Source of the DNA: Truepera sp. | GTDB taxonomy: Bacteria > Deinococcota > Deinococci > Deinococcales > Trueperaceae | Length of the DNA: 64,000 bases | NCBI GenBank assembly: GCA_965218435.1 | Contig: CBDCKW010000009.1 | Span: 3,520,001-3,584,000 of the forward strand | Reading direction: 5' to 3' | Part shown: in pieces, positions 1 through 64,000 of the stretch | Layout of the letters: each line of letters starts with the position of its first letter | How positions within the stretch are numbered: the stretch's first letter is position 1 | Program-made: the position numbers and the translations under genes | Notes under the pieces: generated by a model | Told to the model about the DNA's origin: nothing | Databases searched by the model: none | What the model saw: only the letters and a program-made list of their open reading frames with translations

Positions 1-399
1 CATCGCTGGTGTGATTTTATGAACCGCTGCGTAAAGCTGTACAAGGCGTTCCCACGTTGCGTCTGTTTGCGGCGGGGCGGTCATAACCTGTCCTCCCAAC
101 CATTCCTGCACCACAACGGGGTAGTTGTACAGCTCTTGCTCGAGCCAGACCGGGGCCGGAGCTAACCGCAACTCGAGCTGCTGCAACGCCGTCAAAGCCA
201 AGAATTCGCGTTCTGCGCGGCCACGTTCGTCGCGGAGCGTAAGCTTTACCGCTACGTCCATGTCTCCGCTGGTGGCTCGGTAGATAAGGTTGTTGGCCCC
301 ACCGTTTACGGGTATGACGCGCCAGCTACCGAAGTCGTGAGGCTGAGGTCCGGCAGGAAGGTGCTCGACGAGTCTTTCAAGGCTGTTTCGCCCGGTCAT
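1..399 (-). CDS. Aminoglycoside phosphotransferase/kinase-like protein, N-terminal part, runs off the window edge
   Basis: Hand translation from ATG 399: MTGRNSLERL...VNGGANNLIYRATSGDMDVAVKL...RAEREFLALTAL...VVVQEWLGG, open to base 1. TACGGT -10 element 5 nt upstream. Confidence 0.65.
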   Translation of the reverse strand, partial: MTGRNSLERLVEHLPAGPQPHDFGSWRVIPVNGGANNLIYRATSGDMDVAVKLTLRDERGRAEREFLALTALQQLELRLAPAPVWLEQELYNYPVVVQEWLGGQVMTAPPQTDATWERLVQLYAAVHKITPAM

Positions 400-489
400 G
401 GGCTACCGTAACACGGTGCGTTTAACGCGCTGAGGCTGACTTTTAGAAGCGGCTCGAGCTTAACGGCAGGTTATAGACTGTAGTTGCTT

Positions 490-1080
490 ATGCGCCTGTT
501 TCACTTTAGCGATAATCTTGATATTGACATCTTTATCCCACGGCCCGTCCGCATTTCAGTAGAACGACCCTCGGGTATGGCGTGGCTGAACGGCCCGCTC
601 GTCTGGGCCATAGACGAAAAGCATCAACCTATGTACCTGTTTCCTCGAGAGTGCCCACGCGTTTTGCTATGGACAACGCCTGAGACAACGACTGAAGATC
701 ATGACTATTGGTGGCAGGGAAGCAGGAGCAAAGTTCTCGCTTATACCGAAAAAGCGTGGCTGGGGCGTGTTCAGCGTGAGACCATTTACCGTTATGAGAT
801 GCCGAGTTTGACCTTTGAAGACCTAGATGATGCGGGCATGTGGGTTTCTAAAGTCGCGGTAAAACCTAGCCGACTCGAGGCGCTTTCAAATTTACCGAAA
901 GAACATCAAGCTTATGACGTCGAACTCCGAGTTTTAGAAAATCTCCTACCCCTTAAAGGAGTATGGAACAGCTCACTTCACGCTAGCGGTATCAGGCTGC
1001 GTAACGCACAGCGTTGGGGCGAGCCCGGCTGGACGCATTCCAAAAAAGGTAGAGTTATCCCCGTTACAAAACTCGACTAA
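490..1080 (+). CDS. Conserved hypothetical protein (DUF6886-like)
   Basis: MRLFHFSD..IFIPRP..LVWAIDE..YLFPRECPR motifs. ATG 490 preferred to TTG 484. Confidence 0.6.
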   Translation: MRLFHFSDNLDIDIFIPRPVRISVERPSGMAWLNGPLVWAIDEKHQPMYLFPRECPRVLLWTTPETTTEDHDYWWQGSRSKVLAYTEKAWLGRVQRETIYRYEMPSLTFEDLDDAGMWVSKVAVKPSRLEALSNLPKEHQAYDVELRVLENLLPLKGVWNSSLHASGIRLRNAQRWGEPGWTHSKKGRVIPVTKLD

Positions 1081-1211
1081 AAACTTTTTTGAGAAACATC
1101 TAACCCTTTAAGGACCGAAAAGTATAGCTGTTTGTGAAGCTGTCTTTTGCGTGCAAATTTTGAACATCTATTCGGGTAAACTGTTACTAGACGCCCGGAG
1201 GGGCTATTTTT

Positions 1212-4200
1212 ATGTCGCAAACGCTTATCCAGACAACCTCAAAACGACTGCTCGGCCTGCCTGCAGTCGTGCGGCTGATGCTTTTTACGCGGCAGAGCGG
1301 CCCGGCGGTGCTGATTACGACCGCTGAGCGGCTCGAGCTGTTTTCTCAGAGCGGTGTTTTTGGGGAGCCCTCGAGCCTCAACCCAAACTTAAGCGATTGG
1401 CCCAACAAGCGTGACAAAGTTGTCCTCGACCTAAATAACGCCCTAAAGCCGTTTCCCGTCAATCCCGAACGTTACGCGCTCACGCTGACGCTGGGCCAAG
1501 ACTACCCGCGCGAGGCGCTCTTGGCGCAACTCGTGAGCTTCGGTTACTTGCGCGATGAACTGCCGGGGTTTGTGGTGCGCGGCGATACGGTAACGCTTTA
1601 CCTGAACGCTGACGAAGAGAAAGCCTTACGGCTCGAGTTTTTCGGCGATGAACTCGATACCTTAACCTTTTCCGGTCAGGCGGTGCAAAGCTATACGTTA
1701 GCCCCGCGTGAAGATGCCGAACTAGACGATACTGAAGCTGCTTGGACGAGCCATCTCTTAGAGCACCTTCCCGGCCCGGTCTTTTTGGATTCGTCCGAAC
1801 TTTTTGCCGGTGAAATTAACTCGGGCGAACTGGGCTGGCTTTGGGAGCATTTAGCTGCGCGTGAAGTTGTCTCGTTTGGGCGCGACTCGCTCTCACTACC
1901 GGACGAAAAGAGCGGGCTCGAGCCTCTCGGTTACTACCGAGGTAAGCTGACGACCTTTGCTCGAGAGGCGAAGACGTGGCTCGAGGGTGGCTACAGCGTC
2001 ACCTTACTTTTGCGGTTTGAACGCACCGGGCGGTATCTGCAAGAAAAAGTTTTGGAAGGTGTCGAGACGACCTGGGCGAACCAAGTCACTGCGCGTCCGG
2101 GACAGTTGACGTTGGTCGCCGGGGCCGATACGCGCGGCGGTTACCGCGACGTAAAGGCCAAAGAGGTCGTCTTAACCGAAGACCTCTTGTACGGCTATCA
2201 GGGCTCGAGACCGGGCGGCGTCGGGTCGAAGAAGCTTTCCGGGCGGCGTGTGCAAGACACCGTGCAGCTTTCGGTCGGCGACTATTTGATTCACCCCGAC
2301 CACGGTATCGGGCGGTTTTTGGGACTCGAGCCGCGGCAAGTGTTAGGCGTGACCCGCGACTACCTCATCCTCAAATACGCGGGTGAGGGCAAACTCTACC
2401 TGCCGGTTGAGCAGCTGCCCCTGTTGCGCCGTCACCCCGGTACCACCGACGACCCGCCGCGCCTCAGCACGCTGGGTACGAACGAATGGGCGCGGGCGCG
2501 GGAGAAGGCTCGAGTCGGTGCCCAAGAACTCGCGCTCAAACTCATCCGCACCTACGCCGAGCGGCAGGTGCAAGCCGGGTTGCCCATGCCCGCCAACCCC
2601 GAGTGGGACGTGCTCATCGAAGAAAACTGCCCCTTTGTCCTGACGCCCGACCAGAAGGGTGCAGTTCAGGCGACTTGGCGCGATATGGCGAAAGATGTGC
2701 CGATGGACCGGCTGATTTCGGGCGACGTGGGTTTCGGCAAGACCGAAGTGGCGATTCGGGCGGCGCACCGGGCGGTGGGTCACGGCAAACAGGTCGCCAT
2801 GCTCGTCCCGACGACGGTTTTGGCCTCACAACACTTTGAGACGTATCAGGAGCGGTTTGCGGGGCTTCCGGTGAGGCTCGAGCTCCTCTCCCGCTTCTCC
2901 TCGGACCGCGAGGCGCGTGACATTATCAAAGGGCTTAAAGACGGCACGGTAGACATTGTCATCGGCACGCACCGCCTCTTGTCCGAAGAGATTAAATTCA
3001 AGGATTTGGGCCTGTTGATCGTAGACGAAGAACACCGTTTCGGGGTTGGACAAAAAGAGCGGATGAAGGGACTGAAAGCGAATTTAGATGTGTTGTCGCT
3101 CTCCGCCACACCGATTCCCCGGACGCTTTACATGAGTTTGGTAGGGCTCCGCGACGTATCGCAGATTATGACGCCCCCGGCAGGCCGTCAACCGATTCAG
3201 ACGGTGCTCCAGCCCTTTGACCCGATGGTCGCGCGTGAGGCGATTATGTTTGAGCTCGAGCGCGGCGGCAAAACCTTTTATATCCACGACCGTGTGGGCT
3301 CGATGGGTTCAAAGGCGTTATGGCTGCAAAAACTCGTTCCCGAAGCGCGTATCGGCGTGGCGCACGGGCAGATGGGCGGCGACGAGTTAGAAGAGGTGAT
3401 GCTCAACTTTACCGAGGGCGCGTATGACATTTTGCTGGCCACCACTATCGTCGAATCGGGTCTTGACGTCGCCGGTGCCAATACGCTGGTCATCGAACGC
3501 GCCGACAAACTCGGGTTGGCGCAGCTTTATCAGCTTCGGGGCCGCGTCGGAAGGCGCACCACCGAAGCGTGGGCGTACCTGCTCTATCCGGGCCGCTTGA
3601 CCGAGCAGGCGCAGCGGCGGCTTTACGCTATAGCTGAACTCAACGACTTAGGCAGCGGGCATCTCTTGGCCGAGAAAGACATGGAGATTCGCGGCGTCGG
3701 CAACCTCTTGGGCCCGGAGCAGCACGGCAATATCAGCGCGGTGTCGCTCGAGGTTTATACCGAAATGCTCGCTGAAGAGATCGCCAAACTCAAAGGTGAA
3801 GCGGCGACTGAAGCGCGTAAAGCCGTGGCTATTGACCTGAGTTTAGACGCACGCCTCAGTCCGACCTATATCGCCGATGACGACGCCCGCATCGCCTACT
3901 ACGGCCGCCTGTCTGAAACGGACAGCTTGGCTGAGGTAGCGCGGGTACAGCGCGAACTGCGTGAACGCTACGGGCCGCTGCCGCCTGAAGTCAAGGTCTT
4001 TACCGAACTCGTTAAACTGCGCCTTTTGGCGGCCCAAAAAGGTGTAGCGATGATTTCTGAACATATGACCGATGTGCAGATTGCGTTTGCGGGCGAAAGT
4101 TTAGATTACGACGCCCGTAAACTTAAGAGCTTACCTTTTACGGCCGAAGCGACGCGTTATCCGCCCGGTTTTAGCATCAAAAAGCGCGGGATTAAAGGTG

Positions 4201-4247
4201 ACGCGCTCTTAAACGCTATCACTGACGTTCTCTACCTCTGCGGTTAA
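1212..4247 (+). CDS. mfd: Transcription-repair coupling factor
   Basis: CarD-like domain (HPDHGIGRF), [29 protein letters not shown] and TRCF C-terminus. GGAGGG RBS. Confidence 0.97.
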
Positions 4248-4261
4248 GAGCAAAATAAGAC

Positions 4262-4297
4262 ACAGGAAAGAGCGGCCCTAGGGCCGCTCTTTCCTGT
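4262..4297. terminator. Probable bidirectional terminator (perfect 36-bp palindrome)
   Basis: ACAGGAAAGAGCGGCCCT/AGGGCCGCTCTTTCCTGT between convergent genes. Confidence 0.8.
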
Positions 4298-4310
4298 AGC
4301 TAAACCTAGC

Positions 4311-4820
4311 TTAGAAGTGGTAGTTAAACCCGAGCACGCCGCGAGGCTGGAACGTGAAGGGTACGCTAACGCTCGTACCAAGTTCGGCGTAGAAGCCGAT
4401 CTCACGGTTGAAACGGTATTCGCCGCCGAGGAAGCCGGTAAGCCCAAAGCTGGGGCTTACGGGGAAAACCGTACCCAACTGGAGGCCGGGACCGCCGTAA
4501 AGCACGATGTTTTGGTCGAGCTGAGTAATGGTAAACAGCGCATCTACGTCTAAGCTGAGGCTGGTTGCGAGAAAGTTACCAGCAAAGCTAAAACGCAAGT
4601 CGGGCGTTGCGCCGAAAAGCTGCGCATTTTCAATCGTGTAGTGGACGCTGAGCGGAAAGGGAATCGAAGCGCCGACGTTTTGAGTTGTGTCGAAATTTAC
4701 ACCCTCTTGCGGCGCTATGGTTACCGAAACGCCATTCTTACTTGCGCTTGCGTCTGTTTGAGCAAAGGCGACGCCTGTTAAAAGAAGCGCACCTGCAACT
4801 GCAACCAATAATTTACGCAT
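4311..4820 (-). CDS. Small outer-membrane beta-barrel protein
   Basis: Signal peptide MRKLLVAVAGALLLTGVAFA, alternating hydrophobic strands (LYGGPGL, GGEYRF, FYAELG), C-terminal ...GFNYHF. GGAGG RBS before ATG 4820. Confidence 0.7.
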   Translation of the reverse strand: MRKLLVAVAGALLLTGVAFAQTDASASKNGVSVTIAPQEGVNFDTTQNVGASIPFPLSVHYTIENAQLFGATPDLRFSFAGNFLATSLSLDVDALFTITQLDQNIVLYGGPGLQLGTVFPVSPSFGLTGFLGGEYRFNREIGFYAELGTSVSVPFTFQPRGVLGFNYHF

Positions 4821-4977
4821 GTTCAACCTCCAAAAGTTGTGTGAGCACATCCCTGCTGCCGCTCACGTTCAAGCGGTTATATCACGGGTGTTCGTGGGGT
4901 AACAAGTAGGAGAGACTACAGCTTTTGTGTAAATAGCCCACAATCCTCTCCCGGATAGAGCACGTTTCGCCGCCATT

Positions 4978-5328
4978 TTAGCTGCTACCAGTCCGCTCGA
5001 GATACCGCTCTTGGCCGTTTCTAAGTTTTTGCGTCATGCGGTTACACGGTGGTAACGCCTCATATTTGCTCAGATAAGCGCGGAGGAGCGCCGCCTCTTC
5101 CGAACGCGGCACCCGGCTGTAACGGCTGCGCCAGTAGACTGCTTGCTCAGTAATACACGGGTTTTTTCCCAGATGCTGCCGGATACGGTTCGGCACGTCT
5201 TTGGCCGACTGACCGATGTAGATGACCTGTTTTTTGGCGTCGGCGAGTTCGTACACCCCCGGTTCGGCGTCGCGGCCACGTTTGGGCGGGAGCGCGTCTA
5301 ACTTTCGCCACCGTGCGCTAATCGGCAC
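4978..5328 (-). CDS. Stand-alone GIY-YIG nuclease domain protein
   Basis: PGVYEL...VIYIGQS...NRIRQH...EEAALL...PPCN. Confidence 0.7.
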   Translation of the reverse strand: MPISARWRKLDALPPKRGRDAEPGVYELADAKKQVIYIGQSAKDVPNRIRQHLGKNPCITEQAVYWRSRYSRVPRSEEAALLRAYLSKYEALPPCNRMTQKLRNGQERYLERTGSS

Positions 5329-5341
5329 TAGCTCTCACCGT

Positions 5342-5386
5342 CTCAGCTTTCACAACCTCAGTTTTCACAACCTCAGCTCTCGTAAC
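5342..5386. repeat. 15-bp tandem repeat (3 copies) derived from the era stop-codon region
   Basis: CTCAGCTTTCACAAC CTCAGTTTTCACAAC CTCAGCTCTCGTAAC. Confidence 0.8.
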
Positions 5387-6398
5387 CCAGTTCGCGCAAA
5401 GATTCGGGGTCTTCACGCCACTGTTTGTGAACGGACACCTCGAGGTCTAAATACACGCCCCGGCCTAGAAAAATCTCGAGCTGCTTTCTGGCCGTGCGCC
5501 CGATTTCGCGGATCATGCTGCCACCTTTGCCCAGCACAATCATCCGGTGGTTGGCACGTTCCACCCAGATTTCGGCCATGATGTAGATCAGGTCGTCCGA
5601 GGCTTCTTCCGGGTCGCGCCACTCTAAAACCTGTACGGCGACCGTGTACGGGAGTTCTTGACGCAAGTGCGTCATCGCGCTCTCGCGGATGATTTCACCC
5701 GCCCAGGTTTCACGCGATTGGTCGCTGCGGATGTTGTCCGGGAAAAAGAAAGGACCCGGTTCCAGTTCGCTTAAAAGTTCGCTGCGCAGACGGTAGACCG
5801 CTTCGGGGTCGCTTTGGGCGCTCAGGCTATAGCTACGGCTGACAGTCGGTACGAGGTCGCCGTAAAGCTCTAAAGCTTCGTCAGGATACTTGGCCGCGTC
5901 GAGCTTGTTGCCGACTAAATAGATACGCGTGTCGGGGTCTAAACCGCGCAGGAGCCGCGCGACGTCTTTGTCCTCATCTCCCGGGGGGCGGCGCAGATCA
6001 ACGAGCCATAAGATCACGTCAACGTCCACCACAGCGGCTCGTACCTCGCGGTTCATATACTCGCCGAGCGCATCTTTGGGTCGGTGAAACCCGGGTGTAT
6101 CTACAAAAACGAGCTGCCGGTCGTCCTCAGTAAAGATGCCGCGCACGCCGCGCCGGGTGGTTTGCGGCTTTGAAGTAATCGGCGCGACTTTAACACCTAA
6201 CAGCGTGTTCAGCAGCGTAGATTTGCCGACGTTGGGTTTACCTAAGATAGCGACGAAACCCGAGTAGGTGTCGCCCCCGATCTCTAACATTCCCGGTTCT
6301 AAAGGTTCTGGTGCGGTCGTTTCCAGCTCTGAAGTTATAGGTTCTGAGGTTATAGGTTCTGGAACTATGGGTGAGGTGGTCTCTGAGGGTTCAGACAT
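5373..6398 (-). CDS. era: GTPase Era
   Basis: GKPNVGKS, PQTTR, DTPG, NKLD and C-terminal KH domain (GKGGSMIREIG). Low-complexity N-terminal extension. Confidence 0.96.
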   Translation of the reverse strand: MSEPSETTSPIVPEPITSEPITSELETTAPEPLEPGMLEIGGDTYSGFVAILGKPNVGKSTLLNTLLGVKVAPITSKPQTTRRGVRGIFTEDDRQLVFVDTPGFHRPKDALGEYMNREVRAAVVDVDVILWLVDLRRPPGDEDKDVARLLRGLDPDTRIYLVGNKLDAAKYPDEALELYGDLVPTVSRSYSLSAQSDPEAVYRLRSELLSELEPGPFFFPDNIRSDQSRETWAGEIIRESAMTHLRQELPYTVAVQVLEWRDPEEASDDLIYIMAEIWVERANHRMIVLGKGGSMIREIGRTARKQLEIFLGRGVYLDLEVSVHKQWREDPESLRELGYES

Positions 6399-6553
6399 GT
6401 CGTACTCCTTTATCTTTGCTAACGCTGTCCTAAGGCGAGAAGCTCTAAGGCTGAGGTAGTATAGCGCCTCGAGCCCTCACCTTCCGCAGCTCAAAGCGCG
6501 TCAATCTGTCTTTTACAGACGCTTTTTCACCTGCACGTTCGTTGGTTACGCTT

Positions 6554-6602
6554 TGCAAAACTTCACAAAAGGGTGTGCAAAAACGCTGAACTATGCTAAC
6601 TT
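6554..6602 (+). promoter_or_regulatory. Candidate promoter/operator of the rhamnose operon
   Basis: TGCAAAA/CACAAAA/TGCAAAA repeats at 10-12 bp spacing, then TANNNT candidates (TATGCT, TAACTT) just before GTG 6609. Confidence 0.45.
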
Positions 6603-6608
6603 TAGAGC

Positions 6609-17458: not shown

Positions 17459-17461
17459 CAG

Positions 17462-24123: not shown

Positions 24124-24294
24124 CCCCTACTCGAGCTCGAGTATGAAGCGGTGCTGCTCCGCTATGAGGCCGACTTGTCAGTTAGTATGCAAGACATCGG
24201 TGTGCTGCTCGGTTACCTTTGCCGCGTAGGTGAAGCGCACAGCATCTTCTTTTTGCGGCGACCTGTACTTAGGGTTATCAACTTGCGGGCTTAA
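24124..24294 (+). pseudogene. Remnant resembling the middle of a PIN-domain toxin
   Basis: Start-less frame PLLELEYEAVLLRYEADLSVSMQDIGVLLGYLCRVGEAHSIFFLRRPVL resembles the PLxLEYE..L.R...D...LLDYLC...IFFLWRP pattern I recall for PIN_3-type toxins. Confidence 0.5.
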
Positions 24295-25630: not shown

Positions 25631-26842
25631 ATGAAGATTCTCCACACCGCCGACTGGCACGCCGGGCGAGTTTTACATGGTCAGCCGCGCACGCCTGAAA
25701 TCCGCGACGCGCTGCGTGAAATCGCTGAGCTGGCCAAAGCTGAGGCCGTTGACCTCGTGCTCGTCGCCGGGGACCTCTACGACACCCGCAACCCCGGCGC
25801 GGAGGCTGAAACTGCCGTTTACGAGTTTTTTAAGACGTTGGGTGACGCGCAGATTCCAAGTGTAGTCATCGCGGGCAACCACGACGCACCGGGGCGGCTC
25901 GAGGCCGCCGCCGGACTTTTAGGATTAGCTGGAGTTTACGTCGTCGGCGAACCTAAAGTTGCTCAGCAGGGTGGCGTCTTTACCCTCCAGCTTGGAAACG
26001 AAACGGCCCGAATTGCGGCGCTGCCGTTCGTCTCCGAGCGGCGTATCGTCAAAGTGCATGAGCTGTTGGGTAGCGACCCCGGCGCGTGGCGCGAAGGTTA
26101 CCGCGAGGGGATGCGCAAACTTATCAACAACTTGACCGGTGCGTTCAAAACCGATGCGGTCAACCTTTTGCTGCTCCACACGACGACCGAGGGAGCCAAA
26201 CTCGCGCATTCCGAATACGAGTTTCACTGTACCGACGCCTATACGCTCGCCCCCGACCTGTTCCCCGACACGTGTAACTACGTGGCGCTCGGGCACATCC
26301 ATATGCCGCAACGGGTGCAGGGGTTGCCGGAAAATGCGGGCCGTTACGCCGGGTCGGTCGTACAGCTCGATTTTGGCGAGCAGGGCGATACGAAGTACGT
26401 TTACATCCTCGAGGCCAAAGCGGGCAAACCCACACAGGTCTTAAAAGAACACGCGCTCCAGGCGGGTAAACGCCTGAAACGGGTCAGCGTCTCACGGGAC
26501 GAATTGGACCGGAAACTAAGTGAACTCGAGTGGGACGGCTGGCTCAAGCTTTCGCTTAAGCTCGAGCGCCCCGACCCCGGCTTAAAAGACCGTTTGAAAC
26601 GCGACTATCCCAACTTGCTGGTGGTCGAGCAACTCTTACCCGAGCGCGAACGTCTGGCAGAGCGCCCCACCGACCAACGCAACTTAAACTTGCTAGACGC
26701 CTACGCGCAGTTTTACGACGATGAGCGTGCGACGGCCTTGCCCGAAGACTTGCGCCGCGCTTTCAGCGAGCTTTATGAGCAGACACAACCCCTCGCCGAC
26801 GACGCCAGCACCGAACCTAACGCTGAACCTACCGCACTGTGA
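25631..26842 (+). CDS. sbcD: Nuclease SbcCD subunit D
   Basis: HTADWH, AGDLYD, AGNHD, ALGHIH, YAGS. Confidence 0.95.
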   Translation: MKILHTADWHAGRVLHGQPRTPEIRDALREIAELAKAEAVDLVLVAGDLYDTRNPGAEAETAVYEFFKTLGDAQIPSVVIAGNHDAPGRLEAAAGLLGLAGVYVVGEPKVAQQGGVFTLQLGNETARIAALPFVSERRIVKVHELLGSDPGAWREGYREGMRKLINNLTGAFKTDAVNLLLLHTTTEGAKLAHSEYEFHCTDAYTLAPDLFPDTCNYVALGHIHMPQRVQGLPENAGRYAGSVVQLDFGEQGDTKYVYILEAKAGKPTQVLKEHALQAGKRLKRVSVSRDELDRKLSELEWDGWLKLSLKLERPDPGLKDRLKRDYPNLLVVEQLLPERERLAERPTDQRNLNLLDAYAQFYDDERATALPEDLRRAFSELYEQTQPLADDASTEPNAEPTAL

Positions 26843-29613
26843 GGCCCTTAAAACTTGTGCTCAGCGGCTTCACCTGTTTTCGTGAACCGACCGAAGTCAA
26901 TTTTGAAGACCTGGAGCTGTTCGCCATCTCCGGGATGACGGGTTCGGGTAAATCAACGCTTCTGGACGCGATGACCTACGCGCTTTACGGTCAGACGGCT
27001 CGGCTCGGTACCCGCTTGGGCGATACCCTTTTTAGTCCGAATTTAGACAAACTGAGCGTGCAGCTCACCTTTCGGACCGGCGCTGAGACGTACCGGGTCG
27101 CGCGGATTTCTGAGCGTAAAGGCGCACGCGGCCCCAAAAATGAAACGCGCGTCGAGCACCTCGGCCCGGACGCGTCGTGGAAGCAGCTCGCCGACAGTGA
27201 AAAACTTAAAGACGCCGACCGCAAACTTGAAGAGATCGTCGGCCTGACCTACGACAACTTTACCCGCGCGGTCTTGCTCCCGCAGGGCGCGTTTGACCGC
27301 TTTTTACACGCCAAACCCGGCGAGCGCACGAACCTCTTGCGTGACCTGTTGGGCCTATCTATCACCGCCGAGATGCAAAAAAGGGCAAATACCACCGCGA
27401 AAGAGGCCGACCTGCAGGCCAAAGGCATCGAAGAACGCCTGACGCATGACTACGCGGATGTGACCCCTGAGCGAAAACGGGCGCTCAATCAAGAACTCTT
27501 AGAGCTGATGGACGAACAAAAGGCGCTGCTGAGGGCTCGAGGTACGCTCGCGGAACGGGTTCAAGAGCTGAAAGCGTTACAGAGTTTGCTCGAGGAACAA
27601 GCCGGGGTGGGGCGTAAATTGGTGGCGCTCCGGGCACGAGAAGATGAGATGACGCGGGCTAAAGAGCGGTTAGCAAAGGCTAAAGACGCCGAGACGTTGT
27701 TACCTTACCTGAACGACCTCGAGACCCGCCTGCGTAAAGTTCAGACGCTGAGCCGCCAGCAAGAGCAGCTTAAAAACGACCTGCTGGGAGCCGAAACTGC
27801 GCTCGGCAAAGCTCAAACTGCCTTAAAAACTGCTGAAAGTGACGCCCAAACGCTCCCCGACCTCGCTACTCGGATGGAAGGGCTCGCGGAGACGCGGCCC
27901 CTATTGACGCGGCTTAAAAGTCAAGGCGGCTCGTTAAAACTGGCTGAGAATGAGCGAGAACCCTACAGCGAGGCCGCGTGGGACGCGTTGCGGGACCAGC
28001 TGCGGGAGTTGCCGGGGCTCGAGCGGGCACGCGGTGACGTGACCGACATGCAGATGCGCCGCAATCAGGCCCAAACAGAAAAAGAGGAGGTTGCAGCGCA
28101 GCTGCAAAAGGCGCAAACCGCCCTGACTAGACTCACCACCGAAGGCAAAGGAGCCAAAGCTCGCCGTGAACACGCTGAAACCGCCTATGACGAGGCTGTT
28201 CAAGCGGCCCCGGCTGCCGCACTTCGGCCCCACCTGCATGTGGGTGAAGCGTGCCCGGTTTGTGAACAGACGGTCGCCACGCTGCCGCCCTCCATCACGA
28301 ATGACCTGACCGACCTCAAAGCGGCCAGGGACAAAGCTGTGAAGCTTCACGAACAGTTGCAAGAGGCTTATACGGAGCAGCGCACGACCTTAAAAACGCT
28401 CGAGGCCCGCTTGAGTGACGTGTCTGAACGCGCCGCCCGCGCGGAAGAAGACCTGAATCACCGCACCGAATTGCTCAACACCTTGACCGACAAGTTGGGC
28501 GAACGTGAACCGTCTCGGTTACGTGCCAAACTCACGGCCAAACAGCGGGCGCTCTTAGCCGGTTTAGCGGCGAGCATTTTAGAGAAAACCGGGGGCTCGG
28601 ACCCCGAAGCGGCGCACGCCGCGCTGACTCAAGAACGCACCCGGCTCGAGGCTGGGTTGCGGCAGGCACAAACCGCCTTTCACGCGGCGCAGCGCACCGC
28701 CGACCGCCTGAACGCCGAAGCGTTTGGCATCGGTGAACGGTTGGGTGAGGCGGTAGACGCGCAAGCCCAAGCCGACAAAGTATTTGCCGAACTCTTGTCG
28801 CGCACCAGCTTTCCCAACCCGGACGCGCTCCGCGCCGCCGCGCTCCCCGCCGAGCAGCAGCGCACCCTCACGGAGAAAACCGAACGCTACGCGCACGATA
28901 AGGAGCAGCTCTCGAGGCAAGCCCAAGGATTAGACGAGCGGCTGGCTGGCAAAACCCTCGAGCCCGGTGCGTTAGAAATAGCCCGTACCGAACAGGCGCA
29001 GACCGAAACGCGTTTGGGCGAAGTGCAGAGCCGTCTGGGAGCCCTTAAGGGCGAGCTGAAACGTCTAGCAGAACAGCTGGAGACCGCTAAACGCCTCCGC
29101 CAAGAGCGGGGTGAACTCGAGAAAACCGCCGCACTTTACGGCACGCTCTCCCGTGACCTGATGGTCAACAACTTTCCGGCGTATATGTTGGAGCGCGTCC
29201 AGGCCGAACTCGCGCAGCGTGCCTCGGACATCTTAAAGACCGTGACCGAAGGCCGTTACGACCTCTTTTTTCGCGGCGACGAGTACGTCGTGTTGGACGC
29301 CTGGACAGGTTCCGAGCGGAGCGCCCGGACGCTCTCGGGTGGCGAGTCGTTTATCACCTCGCTGGCGCTGGCGTTAGCCCTTTCCGATACGCTCGCCGGG
29401 AGCACGTCTTTAGGCGCACTCTTTTTAGACGAAGGCTTCGGCACGCTCGACGCGGAAACCCTAGAGGGCGTTGCCAAGGTGCTAGAGTCTTTGACCGCGC
29501 ACGGGCGGATGGTCGGCGTGATTACGCACGTCGCTGCCCTGACCGAACGGTTACCGGACAGGCTTATTGTCCACAAAGGGCCGGAAGGGTCGGTGGTGAC
29601 GTGGGAGGTGTAG
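26839..29613 (+). CDS. sbcC: Nuclease SbcCD subunit C
   Basis: GMTGSGKS, LPQGAF, CPVC zinc hook, LSGGE, LFLDEGFG. GTGA overlap with sbcD. Confidence 0.95.
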   Translation: MRPLKLVLSGFTCFREPTEVNFEDLELFAISGMTGSGKSTLLDAMTYALYGQTARLGTRLGDTLFSPNLDKLSVQLTFRTGAETYRVARISERKGARGPKNETRVEHLGPDASWKQLADSEKLKDADRKLEEIVGLTYDNFTRAVLLPQGAFDRFLHAKPGERTNLLRDLLGLSITAEMQKRANTTAKEADLQAKGIEERLTHDYADVTPERKRALNQELLELMDEQKALLRARGTLAERVQELKALQSLLEEQAGVGRKLVALRAREDEMTRAKERLAKAKDAETLLPYLNDLETRLRKVQTLSRQQEQLKNDLLGAETALGKAQTALKTAESDAQTLPDLATRMEGLAETRPLLTRLKSQGGSLKLAENEREPYSEAAWDALRDQLRELPGLERARGDVTDMQMRRNQAQTEKEEVAAQLQKAQTALTRLTTEGKGAKARREHAETAYDEAVQAAPAAALRPHLHVGEACPVCEQTVATLPPSITNDLTDLKAARDKAVKLHEQLQEAYTEQRTTLKTLEARLSDVSERAARAEEDLNHRTELLNTLTDKLGEREPSRLRAKLTAKQRALLAGLAASILEKTGGSDPEAAHAALTQERTRLEAGLRQAQTAFHAAQRTADRLNAEAFGIGERLGEAVDAQAQADKVFAELLSRTSFPNPDALRAAALPAEQQRTLTEKTERYAHDKEQLSRQAQGLDERLAGKTLEPGALEIARTEQAQTETRLGEVQSRLGALKGELKRLAEQLETAKRLRQERGELEKTAALYGTLSRDLMVNNFPAYMLERVQAELAQRASDILKTVTEGRYDLFFRGDEYVVLDAWTGSERSARTLSGGESFITSLALALALSDTLAGSTSLGALFLDEGFGTLDAETLEGVAKVLESLTAHGRMVGVITHVAALTERLPDRLIVHKGPEGSVVTWEV

Positions 29614-53806: not shown

Positions 53807-53838
53807 ACGGTACCGTTCCAGATTCAAAATCAACTGGT

Positions 53839-53853: not shown

Positions 53854-53885
53854 ACTCACGTTCGGATGAGTCAGCTTAGGAGGTC

Positions 53886-54617: not shown

Positions 54618-54623
54618 TGAACA

Positions 54624-55715
54624 ATGAAGGTGAGAAATATGCCTTTTAGCACTGATACCTACCGTATTCTTATTGCCTCGCCGTCTGATTTAGCAGAAGA
54701 GAGGCAAATAGCTACGGAGGCAATAAACGATTGGAACGCTCAGCACGCGGTTGCCGAGTCAATCATGCTATTGCCTATCAAATGGGAGACGCACGCTGTT
54801 CCACAGTCAGGAGCTAGACCACAAGACGCCATTAACTGTCAGTTAGTACAAGAATGTGACATTTTGATAGGCATGTTTTGGACAAAAATTGGTACAAACA
54901 CAGGTGTCAGTGAGTCGGGAACCGTAGAAGAAATTGACCAATTTGTAGAAGCGGGAAAGCCCACTCTACTTTACTTTTCTAGTCGCCCAATAAATCCGGA
55001 CAAAATAGATATGAAGCAGCATAGGAGGCTCAGAAAGTTTAGAGATGAAACCTACGCGAAAGCGTTAGTGGGCAGCTTTGACAGCCTGGAGAAACTAAAA
55101 AATACGTTAATCCGTGACCTGTTACGTCAAGTACGGGAATTGAAGGCAGAGAAACCGCGTAGCCAAGATGTTGAACTTGACCAAGCGTTTAAGCTCACTG
55201 AACTTATTAGAACACACCGACAGAATAACATCACACCTGAAGATTTTCAAAAGTATCGTGATAATGTTCTTGGGCTCAAGCGCCGCTCTGACTCCGTGAC
55301 ATCAGACCCCGTGCAACCAGGAGAAGTTGGCCCAAATGGTTACAGAGTTGGCTATACACAAGAGGGCGACAAGGTTGAGTGGATACCTGATGATGAAAAT
55401 CCTGGCGAAGAATGGCCGCTTGTGCTACGACGTAGTGACCGAGCAATTATGGACGCTCACAACGAGTTTTGGGATAAAGTGTGGTGGAATCGTCATCAGA
55501 ACTGGCTCTATCAATTAGAAGCTGGCGAAGATGTTCTTACAGAAGAGCAAAAGCCTATCTTAGAACGAGCTAGAAGTGCTGCCAAGCTTATCGAGCAAAA
55601 GTATGGTGAGGAGAACCTTGGCTGGGATGATTTCGAGTGGGGGCTTTTGAGTGGGAAGCTTTCGGCGCTTGCTTGGATAACTGGAGCTGAATGGGAAGAA
55701 TCATTAGACACATAA
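54624..55715 (+). CDS. DUF4062/TIR-like N-terminal domain fused to a Trp/acid-rich C-terminal domain (start may be ATG 54639)
   Basis: [13 protein letters not shown]...WET...[21 protein letters not shown]...SGTVEEI...LLYFS. Visibly AT-richer than neighbours. Confidence 0.75.
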
Positions 55716-55745
55716 AAAAGCAGGCTCGAGTCTCCTCAAGCCTGC
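55714..55745 (-). terminator. Rho-independent terminator of the cys/polysaccharide transcript
   Basis: Minus strand GCAGGCTTGAG-gaga-CTCGAGCCTGC-TTTTTT. Confidence 0.8.
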
Positions 55746-55765
55746 CCAAAAATCTGCTGGAATCT

Positions 55766-56398: not shown

Positions 56399-56399
56399 C

Positions 56400-57575: not shown

Positions 57576-57650
57576 AAGAACTCCTTATGAGATGACGGGT
57601 TATAAAAGCGAACAGCTTAGGGCAGGGTTGCCCAGTTAGCTATAGCCTAC

Positions 57651-58478: not shown

Positions 58479-58548
58479 AAAAACTCCTCAGTGGGACTAT
58501 TGGCGGGGCTACTAAGAGAAGACCCCAAAACTTTTACATCATAACGTG

Positions 58549-59769
58549 TTAGCGGCGAGCTTCTTTGTACGTTTGCTCGAGCACCCCGATCAGCTCGGCA
58601 GCGAGGCCGTCTCTGGAAAAGCGGTCTTCGGCCAGTTGACGCGCCTGCCGACCCGCGCTTTTCAGCCACGCCTCGTCACGTAACGCCCTCAGCAGCGTAT
58701 CTTTCGCCTTATCCATGTCGTGCGGGTCAAGTACCAAACCGGCCCCGGTTTCGCGTAAAATATCGGCCTGCCAGCCGCCGTAATTGATCAGTACCGGCCT
58801 TCCGGCAGCGAGCCCGTCGAAAAACTTGTTCGCCGAATTGACCCACATCTCTTTCAGGTCAATAAATAACGACGAGGCGAACGTTGCTGCCGAGAGCACT
58901 GCCGGAACCTGCTTTTTGGGAATCGGCCCCGGCATAAAGAGCGTTTCATCAAAAACGCCGAGTTCCTGAGCGCGAGCTTTAAGATTGTTGTAATCATACC
59001 CGCCGCCGTAAACCGCGAAGCGCACGTCAGGCGCTTCGGCGCGGACCTTGGCGGCGAGGTCGGCCATATACGGCACGCCGTTAATCTGGCCCATCGTACC
59101 GACGTAGACGATAAACGGCCGGTCGCCCAGCCACGCGTGCTCAGCCCGGTACGCGTCACCCGCCGACTTCGGCACGTCAAAAAGGGCTAAGTCACAGCTG
59201 TTGGGGATGACGTGAACGCGTTCCGCCGGATAGCCGGTGTTGACGATACCCTCTTTCATTCCCGGTGAGAGGGCGATCACCTGCGCGGCGTTGCGGTAGG
59301 CAAAACGCTCGAGCCTTTTGGCGGCGTAGATGGTCGGCTCCCCTTTCAGTGCGCCTATTGCAATCGGGAGTTCCGGCCAGAGGTCGCGGACTTCAAACAC
59401 CATCGGCACACGCCGGCGTCTAGCTGCCCACACTGCCGGGAGCGCAATGGTGAGCGGCGTGCTGCTCGCAAAGATCAGGTCAGTTGGGAGACTCGCCGCC
59501 TTTTGCGCTGCGCCGCGGGCATAGTTAAAAAACGCGCCAATACGGTCGCGGACGCTCATCGTATTCGAGTACGGCACCGGCAACCAATGAACGCGAATGC
59601 CGGCTTCGTCTGAGACACGCCAGCCGCTCCCTGGCGCTGCGTGCCGGTCGGCCGTAATCAGGTTGACCTCGTGCCCGCGTGCTACGAAACGGCGGGCCAT
59701 TTCGTAAGACCTGGTGCTGCCGGGAACCTCGGGCGTGTGAAAATACTGGTGCAAGTAGGTGATCTTCAT
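58549..59769 (-). CDS. Glycosyltransferase family 4 (WbuB-like)
   Basis: YLHQYF, FEVRDLWPE, VIPNSCD, NSANKFFD.LAAGRP. Confidence 0.9.
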   Translation of the reverse strand: MKITYLHQYFHTPEVPGSTRSYEMARRFVARGHEVNLITADRHAAPGSGWRVSDEAGIRVHWLPVPYSNTMSVRDRIGAFFNYARGAAQKAASLPTDLIFASSTPLTIALPAVWAARRRRVPMVFEVRDLWPELPIAIGALKGEPTIYAAKRLERFAYRNAAQVIALSPGMKEGIVNTGYPAERVHVIPNSCDLALFDVPKSAGDAYRAEHAWLGDRPFIVYVGTMGQINGVPYMADLAAKVRAEAPDVRFAVYGGGYDYNNLKARAQELGVFDETLFMPGPIPKKQVPAVLSAATFASSLFIDLKEMWVNSANKFFDGLAAGRPVLINYGGWQADILRETGAGLVLDPHDMDKAKDTLLRALRDEAWLKSAGRQARQLAEDRFSRDGLAAELIGVLEQTYKEARR

Positions 59770-59791
59770 AGGCTTATCGTCTCATACGGGC

Positions 59792-61030
59792 TTACTTAGG
59801 CGCTGTACGAGGTGAGCTGCGAGCCGCCTGGAACTTGGCCTCGAGCTTGTCTACCACGCCGCCGATGTCGTACTCGGCCATCACCCGGTCGCGGCCACGC
59901 TGCCCCTGTCTGAGCCGTTCGGGTTCGTTGCGAACAAACAGTGTCAATGCGTCCGCTAAACTGCCGACATCTTCCGGTGGAATCAGCTGCCCGCTTCCCG
60001 CTGTCAGCAGTTCACGAGTACCGCCAACGTCGGTGGCAATCGCCGGGAGTCCCCGCGACATCGCCTCGAGGAGCGCAATCGAGATGCCTTCGTGTAGACT
60101 CGGCAACACAAACGCGTCGTAACGGCCTTCGCTATAGCTGTCTAGTAATTCGGTATGGTCTACGTTCCCTAAAAAGGTTACTTGCTCGGTAATGCCTAAA
60201 ACTTGGGCCTGCGTCACAAGCGCGTCCCTTTCGGGGCCGTTTCCGGCGAAGCTGATCTGAACGTTGATCCCCTGGGTTTGGAGGCGGTGGACGGCCCCCA
60301 ACAAAAACCGCTGGCCTTTACGCGGAATCAGGCTCCCGGTACAAGTTACCCGCAACTGCACACCGGGCGGCGGGGCAGTTTTCTCTAAAGGACGGTTGCT
60401 CAGCGGGACGCCCATCCGGATGATCTCGGCTTTTTGCTCGAGCGCGGGTCCGGCAACCGGACGGGCGAGCTCTAAGCCGTCTTCTGAAATAAAGCGGACG
60501 AAACGGGCGCTGTCAACTTTGGCCGGGAACGCGTTGGGTGTTTCGATGTCCCAGCGGTGCGCCGTAAAACTCCACGGCACGTCGCTCGTCTCGCCTGCGA
60601 CCAGCGCCATCGTCGCCGCGACCGACGCCCAATACGCGTGAATATGTTCAGCTCCCCAGCGACGGGCAAGGTCGGCGAGCCACATTGATTTGGGAAACGA
60701 GCCGAGATTTTTTCGCACCATCCACCGTTCAGGCAGGCCGACCAGGGTTCGGGAAAGCGCCCCTACTGCCCGTATAGGTGAACGGACAAAACCAGTTGGG
60801 GCTGCCTTTAACACGTTTTTTGATAAGAGCGCCTCGTAGTCCGTCAGCTCTAAAAAGGGTTCGGCGTCGCTATGAATCTCTGCGGAGTAACGCGTTACCG
60901 GGACGATCTTGAGGTCGTGACCCCGCCGCACCAGCTCGCGCATTTCCGGAAGGGCGAACACTTCGGTCACGCCGTAGGGTAGCGACGCAGTGACGTAAAT
61001 GATCTTCACCGGTTTGGCCCGGACGAACAC
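59792..61030 (-). CDS. Glycosyltransferase family 4
   Basis: HIHAYW, SFTAH..DI, RKG, PSLHEGISIALLEAM, TDVGG. Confidence 0.9.
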   Translation of the reverse strand: MFVRAKPVKIIYVTASLPYGVTEVFALPEMRELVRRGHDLKIVPVTRYSAEIHSDAEPFLELTDYEALLSKNVLKAAPTGFVRSPIRAVGALSRTLVGLPERWMVRKNLGSFPKSMWLADLARRWGAEHIHAYWASVAATMALVAGETSDVPWSFTAHRWDIETPNAFPAKVDSARFVRFISEDGLELARPVAGPALEQKAEIIRMGVPLSNRPLEKTAPPPGVQLRVTCTGSLIPRKGQRFLLGAVHRLQTQGINVQISFAGNGPERDALVTQAQVLGITEQVTFLGNVDHTELLDSYSEGRYDAFVLPSLHEGISIALLEAMSRGLPAIATDVGGTRELLTAGSGQLIPPEDVGSLADALTLFVRNEPERLRQGQRGRDRVMAEYDIGGVVDKLEAKFQAARSSPRTAPK

Positions 61031-61042
61031 CTGTTCCCACGT

Positions 61043-62161
61043 CTATGCATGAGCAGCCTCATGACCCGGTAAGAGAACGTCTAAATATTGCGGCAAAACA
61101 CGCGCTTCGGTAAAGTCGCACGCCCTGGTTTTGAGTGCGGGGTTCAGGGGCGCAGCTAACGTTGCCGAAATAGCCTCTGCCAGTGCCGGGGCGTCGCCTA
61201 CCGGCACCAACGGGGCCAGCCGACCCCCGTCTAAAATTTCTCTGGGACCGCTCGGACAGTCGGTGCTGACGACTTTGCAGCCGCACGCCATCGCCTGAAC
61301 GAGTGCGCCGGGGAGACCTTCAAATTTGGACGAAAGGACGAAGGTATCGGCGTGCGCCATGTAAGTAAACGGGTTGTCAACAAAACCGGGCAAGGCGACG
61401 GCGTGCTCAACGCCGAGTTCACGGGCGAGCGCCCCAAGTTTAGAACGCTGTTTGCCCTCGCCCAAAATCATCAGCCGCGCCGGACGCTCCTGAATGGCGG
61501 CGGCAAACGCTCTGACGAGCGTTGGAAAATCTTTTTGCGGTGCGAGCCGTCCGACGCCCAAAACGACGGGGGGTTCGCCGGGTGCGAACCACGGATGTAG
61601 GGGGGGTTGCTCTGCGCGTTCAAAAAGTTCAGGGGTCACAACCGGATTGTAAATCGTATGGATTTTTTTTAGATCGGTTTTCAGGTAACGCGCCAGATCG
61701 TCTGCGACGCCTTGGGAAACAGCGATGTGCGCGTCCGCCCACGGGTAAACGAGTTTGACCGACGTTTGTAATGACACCCCTCTAAAGCTCGAGGCCGGTT
61801 TGGGAAAAAGCATATTCGATTCGCGGATCACGGTGCGGGTCGGCACACGGGCGAGTTTACAAGCTAGCAGCGCAATCACGCTCGAGTGGTTGAGCGTTGC
61901 TAACAGTGCGGTGGGCCGAGCGCGGCGCAGGTAACGGACCAGCTTGGGCAAGCTGGCGCTGACACCCTTCGAGGCGAGGTCAACGATCTGGACGTCGGGC
62001 GCAACCAGTTCCAAGTAAGGCCCACGAGCTTCGGCCAGTACCAGATCGGTCTCAAACCCCCGCTCTACAAAACCGGCGGCCAAGTTGACCATCATACGCT
62101 CTGCGCCGCCGCCGTCGAGGTTAGGCAGGTAGAGTGACAAGGTGGGCTTACGTTTCGTCAT
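61043..62161 (-). CDS. Glycosyltransferase family 4
   Basis: GGGAER, IYNPV, GRLAPQKDF, SSKFEGLPGALVQAMACG, TDCPSGP. Confidence 0.92.
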   Translation of the reverse strand: MTKRKPTLSLYLPNLDGGGAERMMVNLAAGFVERGFETDLVLAEARGPYLELVAPDVQIVDLASKGVSASLPKLVRYLRRARPTALLATLNHSSVIALLACKLARVPTRTVIRESNMLFPKPASSFRGVSLQTSVKLVYPWADAHIAVSQGVADDLARYLKTDLKKIHTIYNPVVTPELFERAEQPPLHPWFAPGEPPVVLGVGRLAPQKDFPTLVRAFAAAIQERPARLMILGEGKQRSKLGALARELGVEHAVALPGFVDNPFTYMAHADTFVLSSKFEGLPGALVQAMACGCKVVSTDCPSGPREILDGGRLAPLVPVGDAPALAEAISATLAAPLNPALKTRACDFTEARVLPQYLDVLLPGHEAAHA

Positions 62162-62257
62162 GGGCGCAACCCCAGCTGCAAATCCGGATACGCCCGACTC
62201 GAGGGGGCATACGAGAACAGAGCATATGGGGATAGGTGAGAGCTTACCATCAAGTCC

Positions 62258-63811
62258 TTAGCGGTACTGCAGTTTGTTCATCTGAACGCGTATAGGTTTG
62301 GGAAAATAGACGCTTACGGTTTTCAAAATCCAGAGGCCGTCCTCACCTAAAAAGAACTTCGGTAAGACCCAGATCAGTACAAGTAGCGTCATACCGACAA
62401 CGCCTACTGCGCCGACTAAAACAGCCAGGTCAGGCCAAGCGAGACTGCGGAACATATCTGCTACCAACCAGGTCTCTAAAGCTGTCACGCCGGTAAGGAC
62501 CAGAGCCGGGACGTGAACCATAAAAAAGGTTGACCATTTCATCTCTGTAACTTTAAGGCTAAGCTGCGCCATCGACAAAAAGTTAAGGGCGATGGCGACA
62601 CTTACCCCAACGGCAACCCCGATGATCCCCTGGTAATGACCGATCCAAGTACCTGCAATAATAAGTGCCGCAAAGATAAGCTGCCGCAAGGCCCTTTGAA
62701 AAACAATCCCCGACGAGCGGCAGAGTGAGTCGCCCATCTTGTAACTCGTTCTAAACAGCATGGCGAAGGCGAATATCTTAAACGGCACGATGATAGGGTC
62801 CCAATTTTGACGGCGACCTAAAAGTACGTGGATAAACTCGGGGGCAAGAAAGAACAAAAACGCGCTGAGCGGCATGACGACGAGCGCAATAGCAACGACG
62901 CCGCGGCGGTACACAGCGCCGAGCGTTTTAGGCTCATCTTGTTTTTTAGACATGGCGGTAAAAAGCACCGAGTCCAAAACTTGCCCGAAATACTGTGAGG
63001 GCAGCACCATCAGCTGATAAGCGCGGCCGTAAAGCCCGACGGCTCGACCGCCCAGGGTTGCGCCGACAATGAGGTTGTCCGAAGTGCTGGCAATTTTATT
63101 AAAAACCTCTCCCAAAGTAAGGCCGGAGCCGAACGAAAGCAGTTCGCCTAAGGCTTTTCTGTTGAGCTGAAAGCCTTTGGGATGAGGCGAGGCGCGTAAA
63201 AAAAGCGCACTGTAAACGATCGATTGGCTGACCGAAGCCCATACCAGAGCCCACGCCCCGAACCCAAGCAGCGCTGTAGCGACGCCGATAACGCCGTACC
63301 CAATGGCATAAGCCGTCACGCCAAAGCGCGCTTTGATACGAAAGTTAAGGTTGCGGTAGTTGAGCGCCCGGGCCACTGCGCCGATACCGTTGACGATAAA
63401 AAGAAACGACATCCCTCTGACGATTTCTAAAAGGCCCGGAACATCGGGGTAAAAGCTTGCAAAAAAGGGTGCGATCAGCCAGATGACGGCGGTTACCAGC
63501 ACGCTTAAGATCATCGTAAAGGTAAAACCGGAGCGGATGTGATTTTCGTCGATGGTTTTGCGCTGAATGAGTGAGGGTGCAATCCCAAACTGGTAAAAAA
63601 ACCCGGCAAAGATCACAATAATGTTGGCGATGTTGACAACCCCAAACTCCGCCGGAGCGAGTAGGCGCGACAAGACGGCCAGCACCAAAAATTGCAAGAC
63701 AGCACTGATTCCGGTACTGGCAAACGACCAGAAAAAGCCTACGAGTGTAAGGTGAGTCAGGCTCTTTTTCTCTGCCTTACGCGGTTTAGCTTCTGCCACA
63801 AAAACTCCCAC
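62258..63811 (-). CDS. Polysaccharide flippase (Wzx/WzxC-like)
   Basis: LSRLLAPAEFG, many TM segments, GLYGRAYQL. Confidence 0.9.
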   Translation of the reverse strand: MGVFVAEAKPRKAEKKSLTHLTLVGFFWSFASTGISAVLQFLVLAVLSRLLAPAEFGVVNIANIIVIFAGFFYQFGIAPSLIQRKTIDENHIRSGFTFTMILSVLVTAVIWLIAPFFASFYPDVPGLLEIVRGMSFLFIVNGIGAVARALNYRNLNFRIKARFGVTAYAIGYGVIGVATALLGFGAWALVWASVSQSIVYSALFLRASPHPKGFQLNRKALGELLSFGSGLTLGEVFNKIASTSDNLIVGATLGGRAVGLYGRAYQLMVLPSQYFGQVLDSVLFTAMSKKQDEPKTLGAVYRRGVVAIALVVMPLSAFLFFLAPEFIHVLLGRRQNWDPIIVPFKIFAFAMLFRTSYKMGDSLCRSSGIVFQRALRQLIFAALIIAGTWIGHYQGIIGVAVGVSVAIALNFLSMAQLSLKVTEMKWSTFFMVHVPALVLTGVTALETWLVADMFRSLAWPDLAVLVGAVGVVGMTLLVLIWVLPKFFLGEDGLWILKTVSVYFPKPIRVQMNKLQYR

Positions 63812-63898
63812 TCAAAAGCCGAAAGAGGCTGACTCTTCGGCTAAAATAGTTCACCATAACAGCTCAGCCGCGCCTGTAGACTCAGCTGCGTCACAGAG

Positions 63899-64000
63899 TT
63901 AGTTGAGCTCACGGTCGAGCTGCAAATTGCGCGGTGGCTCGTCCTCATCCTCTAGATAAAGATAGTCGTCAATAGCCTCGAGCAAATCCCTAAGCCTCGG
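63899..64000 (-). CDS. C-terminal end of an upstream gene of the polysaccharide locus, product unknown
   Basis: Open frame PRLRDLLEAIDDYLYLEDEDEPPRNLQLDRELN* entering from the window edge. Confidence 0.5.
   Translation of the reverse strand, partial: PRLRDLLEAIDDYLYLEDEDEPPRNLQLDRELN

Follow-up and report, generated by a model that had tools for sequence, protein, structure and literature searches.

The DNA considered here is a window of 64,000 nt from contig C9 of a 4.81 Mb bacterial genome in nine contigs (G000), and it raises the question of why a single palindromic hexamer, CTCGAG, should recur throughout a stretch whose gene content (mfd, era, rhamnose genes, sbcCD and accDA) is that of an ordinary chromosome. 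Exact counting finds 135 copies in the window (2.1/kb), with observed to expected ratios (O/E) of 6.9, 6.4 and 5.6 under Markov models of order 0, 1 and 2 respectively; the next palindromic hexamer reaches 1.9 at order 2. The whole of G000 has 9,883 copies (2.1/kb, O/E 6.7, 6.1 and 5.2 by the same models, mean spacing about 470 bases), CTCGAG ranks first among its hexamers by order-2 O/E, the second palindrome stands at 1.13 and many lie below 0.3. Density along the chromosome is even, at 86–131 copies per full 50-kb bin. Across the phylum the best correlate of the word, with exceptions, is a chromosomal copy of the helicase-nuclease AddAB, and we discuss below what this correlation may mean.

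Enrichment within and between genes

For the 63 genes of the window, synonymous shuffling predicts 28.2, 1.2 and 2.4 copies in frames 0, 1 and 2, where 92, 10 and 12 are observed; the highest total in 200 shuffles was 46 and the observed total is 114. Genome-wide, using gene calls made for this analysis (3,688 confident of 4,551), the same frames hold 5,984, 425 and 1,227 copies as against 1,876, 62 and 236 on within-gene synonymous shuffling, and a dicodon-Markov null predicts 233 and 557 for the two off frames. Intergenic DNA contains 762 copies in 411 kb, an O/E of 6.6 that becomes 10–15-fold once copies of the word are masked in training the model, and one-mismatch variants between genes show no enrichment (0.66–1.12 of order-2 expectation). 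There are no copies in the 16S rRNA gene and one in a 3-kb stretch of 23S. The initial annotation of this DNA had named beforehand a dicodon-preserving null and the intergenic frequency as the two places where the enrichment might vanish, and it persists in both.

The features of the window to which we refer are as follows.

139..63982, no strand: 135 dispersed CTCGAG copies by exact counting, a subset of the 9,883 genome-wide
453..458, no strand: an intergenic CTCGAG, as are those at 6468, 24130, 24560, 25567, 30938, 40213, 44315, 53848 and 62198
644..649, no strand: an off-frame CTCGAG, xCT-CGA-Gxx, frame from gene calls
1370..1375, no strand: an off-frame CTCGAG within mfd, xxC-TCG-AGx, frame from gene calls
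24130..24141, no strand: two adjoining intergenic CTCGAG copies, close pairs being under-represented genome-wide
54624..55715, + strand: an AT-richer gene (GC 0.457) without CTCGAG, an absence that is not significant

All 17 positions counted by hand in the first 3.8 kb, where the expectation is 1.16, are exact; the claim that copies occur in all three frames holds together with its three examples, and the ten intergenic sites that had been listed agree with independent gene calls. The reported absence from the gene at 54624–55715 is real, although it is uninformative, as that gene has only three Leu-Glu pairs; a gap of its size has a probability of about 0.03, with about four such gaps expected among the window's 134. 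Genome-wide, the bases flanking CTCGAG are independent and nothing extends past six, so a longer motif was rejected, as was an origin cluster as in Nocardia, there being none at dnaA and a chromosomal maximum of 8 copies per kb. Separately, G000 strongly avoids GGCGCC, GGGCCC, TTTAAA and AGGCCT (O/E 0.02–0.07), intergenic DNA included, and positions 25631–29613 of the window are an sbcD-sbcC pair (hairpin nuclease).

Preference, conservation and spacing

The choice of synonymous codons provides further insight into the force acting on the word. Genome-wide, arginine is encoded by CGA in 41% of xCT-CGA-Gxx contexts and in 5–6% elsewhere, and serine by TCG in 71% of xxC-TCG-AGx contexts as against 14–25% elsewhere. 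The motif base is favoured over a synonymous alternative in all 18 testable classes of position, frame and base, with odds ratios of 4–42, transitions and transversions being affected alike and all six bases covered; because every class is affected, a repair bias at a single position is excluded.

Comparison with two relatives, G005 (210 genes from 400 kb) and G004 (147 genes from 234 kb), whose fourfold-site identity is about 0.57, shows that Leu-Glu pairs retain CTCGAG at 0.81 as against 0.31–0.59 for 12 control dicodons. GAG after CTC is retained at 0.988 (0.39–0.90 in 12 other contexts), and in the CTC context gain runs from GAA to GAG in 8 of 8 cases. Frame 2 copies are conserved in 144 of 229 cases; for frame 1 the figure is 14 of 76, which is not above background, and the Leu-Glu pair itself is no better conserved in these two comparisons when it is spelled with the word. 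Amino-acid identity is 0.83 near sites and 0.87 far from them, i.e. the word sits in less constrained protein segments. Local shielding from mutation was rejected, as fourfold-site identity has no trend with distance from the word (0.554 near, 0.546 at 400–800 bp and 0.533 beyond). We place no weight on a reversible rate model of Leu-X dicodons, which proved unstable for several of the controls.

Copies of the word also repel one another, over a range of about 400 bp. Relative to a permutation null, pair counts are 0.81, 0.89, 0.92, 0.93, 0.97 and 0.99 at 6–50 bp and up to 100, 200, 300, 400 and 600 bp respectively, the coefficient of variation (CV) of gaps in G000 is 0.954 as against 1.016 (z -8), and the probability of the word given Leu-Glu climbs from 0.445 with a neighbour less than 50 bp away to 0.69 beyond 1 kb, with no comparable trend in eight control pairs. 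The repulsion is two-sided (0.16 per ln distance on the origin side and 0.18 on the terminus side, standard error 0.018), and 9 of 14 informative samples share its sign; one of these, Thermus-like, has a gap CV of 0.76. A periodicity scan gave weak peaks at 72 and 10.6 kb, the top heights of 8.7 and 7.9 comparing with a chance maximum of about 6.6 over 769 frequencies. Gain, retention and repulsion together make the word look like one under selection or gene-conversion drive with diminishing returns. The earlier suggestion that a DNA-level process maintains it is upheld by the off-frame and intergenic enrichment, the conservation, the spacing and the position-general preference.

Distribution across the Deinococcota

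We surveyed 221 genomes of the phylum, in which the names of groups f2 (Deinococcaceae), g21 (Deinococcus), g23 (Thermus) and g26 (Meiothermus) are inferred from gene content, size and number, and f1 is taken as Trueperaceae because the closest named relatives of one G000 gene in a housekeeping context are Truepera sp. (67% and 61%). CTCGAG density is 1.4–3.5/kb in g26, about 6/kb in f5 and 2.5–3.4/kb in the four g41 genomes. In g23 it is 0.6–1.6/kb while CTCGAC is almost purged (5–70 per strand), so that TCGA persists there mainly as CTCGAG. It is at most 0.46/kb in 95 of 96 f2 genomes, and in high-GC Trueperaceae that lack MutL the word is enriched only 1.4–1.6-fold in the Leu-Glu frame.

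G000 carries an addB-addA pair at C9:3359875–3365677. With orthologues called at E<=1e-70 in the 221 genomes, AddA is present in 50 of 52 f1, 10 of 10 f3, 57 of 58 f4 and 4 of 4 f5 genomes, and in 2 of 96 from f2; 20 further f2 matches are weak (1e-31 to 1e-47) and resemble distant helicases of Deinococcus plasmids. AddA scores below the NCBIfam curated cut-off (152 against 708 bits). One of the two f2 carriers, G197, has 3.6 CTCGAG/kb. The other, G196, has 109 CTCGAG in its genome and 22,865 copies of CTCTGG/CCAGAG (4.5/kb), a word enriched 2.4–6.1-fold in all six frame and strand classes, with CTCGGG also raised. The palindromic shape may thus be incidental, since this AddAB-bearing relative uses a non-palindromic word. 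Its two congeners have AddA and CTCTGG at 1.5–1.6/kb; elsewhere CTCTGG reaches 1.28/kb in G142 and at most 0.94 in the other 121 genomes.

AddAB was not found in Deinococcus, G007 or G198, and these lack the word. G007 has no match to AddA or AddB and a CTCGAG O/E of 1.1. Within g50, both proteins are found in G256 (8.6/kb; 16,253 copies in 1.9 Mb) and G257 (7.0/kb; 24,536 in 3.5 Mb), whereas neither was found in G198 (95% complete, 5 contigs), which has 0.30/kb (683 in 2.3 Mb); this contrast was predicted from the AddA and AddB status before the words of G256 and G257 were counted. ComEC, MutL, Vsr and four methyltransferase families were compared with AddAB as alternatives. No P values are given because related genomes are not independent and only a handful of events is involved.

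MutL, recognised in G000 by a motif match, adds to this pattern. Within Trueperaceae, strong enrichment is seen in 19 of 20 genomes with MutL and in 1 of 33 without, and strong enrichment has been shown to occur almost only where a vertically inherited addAB pair and mutL are both present. Four genomes without the word, G198, G118, G126 and G092, have MutL as well as ComEC, and for that reason neither explains these losses; ComEC occurs in most genomes tested. A search for MutL was negative in 33 of 53 Trueperaceae, chiefly from high-GC genera, and in 7 of 10 f3 genomes.

The methyltransferases present a more variable picture. G000 encodes an N6-methyladenine (m6A) enzyme of Eco57I-C type, P0001 (family A), at C9:3672240–3673934 amid housekeeping genes; no restriction gene lies beside it, 16 proteins neighbouring its homologues gave no Pfam match for a restriction partner, and P0001 itself has no match in the PDB. 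Family A occurs in 27 of 52 other f1 genomes and 14 of 58 from f4, family B (P0002) in 15 of the 221, and the TaqI-like family C (P0003, on record as a Marinithermus hydrothermalis protein) in 30 of 30 g23 genomes, 2 of 2 from g44 and G030; all three are absent from the 96 f2 genomes. These three unrelated m6A families substitute for one another across the phylum. In g26, for example, family A is present in 14 of 19 genomes and family B in the other five, never both, an alternation from which we predict that both families methylate CTCGAG. Of the f1 genomes, 20 of the 32 that carry A or B have a CTCGAG to CTCGAC ratio of at least 1.5, as does none of the 21 lacking both.

Family A presumably resembles the mycobacterial MamA. 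For M. smegmatis MamA, CTCGAG appears only as a prediction in the passage concerned (PMC7526240). The tables of Blow 2016 (PMC4752239, Table S3) list CTCG(m6A)G enzymes with no restriction partner for Marinithermus hydrothermalis, Meiothermus ruber and M. chliarophilus (M.Mhy14884I, M.Mru1279II and M.Mch9957IV), which share both word and phylum with G000 and whose methylation is 94–99.5% complete; those rows report methylation, not over-representation, and they contain no CTCGAG enzyme for M. silvanus. P0001 belongs to a different family from these orphan enzymes, and its specificity is predicted. The link to a methyltransferase, for which the initial annotation suggested a search, was partly known already, as CTCGAG m6A in this phylum, and it is not obligatory. 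A methyltransferase is neither shown necessary for the word, because g41, f5 and G197 are dense with no match to families A, B or C, nor sufficient, because 71 of 72 homologue loci of family A outside the Deinococcota have O/E of at most 2.1, and family A as sufficient cause is rejected. A single universal enzyme was likewise rejected (family D is in 2 of 4 f5 genomes and absent from G197), and the g41 genomes share no Eco57I-domain enzyme.

Several observations stand beside these. One outside locus, L073, a metagenome-assembled genome assigned to Myxococcota, has 21 CTCGAG in 6.2 kb (O/E 6.5) around its family A methyltransferase, which points to a Deinococcota contig binned wrongly or else to another phylum that has the word. 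All 30 Thermus-like g23 genomes keep a TaqI-type methyltransferase; among 20 loci of this enzyme family, 8 have a recognisable TaqI-like restriction gene adjoining. In G000 a type III-like Mod methyltransferase gene is seemingly split over two reading frames at C9:3165773–3168971.

Mobile elements differ in their content of the word. Two small plasmids of G000 are denser than the chromosome (2.1/kb): the C6 unit of 12,981 bp has 5.0/kb and the C8 unit of 10,471 bp has 3.25/kb. Both are cryptic, were assembled as tandem overlaps, have 1.5–2.4 times the chromosomal density, and encode integrase, Toprim/primase-helicase and ParE-domain proteins. Plasmids of Meiothermus silvanus are enriched 2.4–3.1-fold and Meiothermus phage MMP17 has 2.6/kb, while three Thermus phage stretches are not enriched (0–0.2/kb). 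In Thermus phage P23-45 (L307, 40–84 kb) CTGCAG and CCTGCA/TGCAGG are enriched about 6-fold and CTCGAG is depleted; phage phiLo has no CTCGAG in the 20 kb examined and its own TaqI-like methyltransferase (L306:2312–3454, 51% identical to P0003).

Possible readers of the word

We tentatively favour, at a confidence just short of probable, the explanation that CTCGAG is a cis-acting signal in genome maintenance, namely a Chi-like site that the AddAB of Deinococcota reads and that spreads in polyploid cells because breaks are repaired with a bias towards it. An AddB profile built from four sequences matches B. subtilis AddB (E 1.6e-4) over the two Chi helices, which are described in PMC4614115 (PDB 4CEH/4CEI/4CEJ), with an invariant PxQ on P40-D41-Q42, and a fold search with an AddB model puts AddB chains first. 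In this explanation AddAB would resect from a double-strand end until AddB meets CTCGAG. A chromosome copy with the word would halt resection there and keep it; in one with a one-base variant, resection would run on beyond the site, and the template used for repair might carry the word, whether it is another chromosome copy in a polyploid cell or incoming DNA. The outcome would be gene conversion biased towards the word, to which selection for shorter resection might add. A site near another would less often be the first met, which would produce repulsion, and since breaks fall at random the site would have to work in either orientation, as a palindrome does. Without mismatch repair, mutation pressure would rise enough to swamp a weak drive. 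The orphan m6A methyltransferases would be mainly a consequence, with any enzyme that methylates the site being retained, since about 10,000 sites per genome would make CTCGAG or TCGA restriction lethal; the methyl mark may also take part in recognition. The steps from recognition onward are our inference. Such a stop-and-convert model would account for symmetric gain and retention, two-sided repulsion, the lack of orientation, dense small plasmids and decay without AddAB.

T. thermophilus is reported to be polyploid and to be transformed up to 1,000-fold better once addAB is lost (PMC11143384, PMC9751324), in accounts that mention Chi only generically. With somewhat more reserve, we regard as possible the wider picture of a palindromic, orientation-free Chi that spreads itself in polyploid genomes, is CTCTGG in one lineage, has decayed wherever AddAB was lost, including the radiation-resistant Deinococcus, and serves as a self mark at the main transformation barrier of Thermus.

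A number of observations weigh against an AddAB reader. No known Chi site is palindromic, and known sites favour the leading strand; such a bias is undefined for a palindrome, CTCTGG in G196 is unbiased (99 against 91 in 40 kb), and the repulsion is symmetric. Core enrichment is lacking, since word use is 0.515 in foreign-looking and 0.52–0.57 in core-like genes (codon-score quintiles, 0.515–0.567) and the small plasmids are denser than the chromosome. Because these strand-bias and core-genome features fail, we do not file CTCGAG as a Chi site, and its Chi activity is a prediction. The rise of CTCTGG in the congeners of G196 is modest, and repulsion is flat or reversed in 5 of the 14 samples. 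G204 and G088 have AddAB and yet 0.29 and 0.64/kb, both being without MutL, while G077 has no strong AddAB match and yet 1.1/kb. G007 and G198 are small genomes, possibly short of much else, and the whole AddAB contrast amounts to about four independent events, so that any co-lost gene fits equally. G022 and G227 carry AddA and MutL at CTCGAG ratios of 1.16 and 1.06, G202 and G210 lack MutL at ratios of 1.8 and 3.05, and G257 is likewise an exception to the joint pattern, perhaps through assembly gaps; the MutL loss in Trueperaceae may have happened only once, with high GC as a confounder. The AddB model is of low quality (pTM 0.31, TM-score 0.18), and a comparison of Chi-pocket residues across lineages, having only four sequences, was uninformative.

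Another DNA-binding protein, such as a nucleoid organiser or SMC loader, lost alongside addAB and needing roughly even sites, would cover the conservation, the repulsion and the lack of strand bias without an unusual Chi, and the highly iterated palindrome of cyanobacteria, HIP1, has been suggested to play a structural part (PMC5861425). We consider it unlikely, as no candidate was identified and the word has neither a convincing long-range period nor a cluster at dnaA. Marginally less likely is methyl-directed mismatch repair, in which hemimethylated CTCG(m6A)G would show MutL the new strand and even spacing would be selected. GATC marks the strand in this way in E. coli, and Elhai reportedly proposed such a role for HIP1. 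The MutL contrast in Trueperaceae, the presence of A or B in all 20 enriched f1 genomes, their alternation in g26 and methylation by partnerless enzymes in three Deinococcota speak for it, but g41, f5 and G197 are dense without a match to any of the three families, one strand of CTCTGG has no adenine, fourfold-site identity does not fall with distance, and G198 and Deinococcus have MutL without the word. M. silvanus, with no enzyme in the tables of PMC4752239, has enriched plasmids all the same.

Still less probable is a DNA uptake sequence (DUS) spread by molecular drive, as for the Neisseria DUS and in a recent HIP1 proposal, notwithstanding that even spacing, symmetric gain and retention and a position in less constrained segments are also features of uptake sequences in the account cited (PMC1939737), and that ComEC is widespread. 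G198 and Deinococcus-like genomes have ComEC too, in spite of lacking the word, and the one-mismatch variants are not enriched between genes. DNA uptake in Thermus is not known to have a sequence preference. A Leu-Glu codon or dicodon preference, or a Vsr-type repair bias at one cytosine, is largely refuted and very improbable. It would fit the 78% of G000 coding copies that lie in the Leu-Glu frame and the slight enrichment of MutL-less Trueperaceae, but off-frame and intergenic enrichment is 5–7-fold, every position and base change is affected rather than one C:T change, and Vsr (PF03852) was not found in G000.

Among known systems, Chi of B. subtilis AddAB (PMC4614115) shares with CTCGAG a short over-represented word with lineage-specific variants and a co-occurring helicase-nuclease, here with a putative equivalent of the two Chi helices; CTCGAG differs in being palindromic and, in several species, methylated. 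With HIP1 (GCGATCGC) and the alternate cyanobacterial HIPs, on the features given in PMC4390886, PMC5861425 and PMC13756078, it shares the abundance of a palindrome in coding and intergenic DNA alike, beyond what Markov and codon models predict (5–7-fold at about 2,000 per Mb, where HIP1 reaches 15–300-fold), conservation beyond codon constraint (here in frames 0 and 2, frame 1 being at background) and a usual orphan methyltransferase, here only putatively cognate, that is absent in some of the densest genomes. It differs in phylum and word, in having six bases without preferred flanks, in its m6A enzymes of three families, in one-mismatch variants that are not conserved, in short-range repulsion as against a demonstrated 10–90 kb period, and in tracking AddAB and MutL; CGATCG, the core of HIP1, has an O/E of 0.15 in G000. 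CTCGAG is therefore HIP1-like in pattern and is not HIP1, and the analogy drawn in the initial annotation stands for the pattern, while its best correlate, AddAB with MutL, points to Chi rather than HIP1. Like uptake sequences (USS/DUS) and Dam GATC, CTCGAG is abundant, evenly spaced and kept at some protein cost, but no uptake receptor or MutH-like reader was identified for it, and ComEC and MutL alone fail to predict it.

A search of open papers found no description of CTCGAG over-representation in the phylum and no Chi sequence named for Deinococcota. Methylation of CTCGAG was already known from the supplement of Blow 2016; the position-general preference, the repulsion, the alternating methyltransferases and the correlation with AddAB and MutL are new. 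Even with another reader, the contrast of G256 and G257 with G198, together with the word switch in G196, narrows the search to a few gene losses. If AddAB is the reader, CTCGAG would be the Chi signal still missing for the entire phylum, its palindromic, unoriented and often methylated form would be new to known systems, and a HIP-like word would gain a concrete cause, which HIP1 has been without for 30 years. The loss of AddAB in Deinococcus would then be linked to a signature that is visible in the genome, and a simple route to higher transformation of Thermus and Meiothermus would suggest itself.

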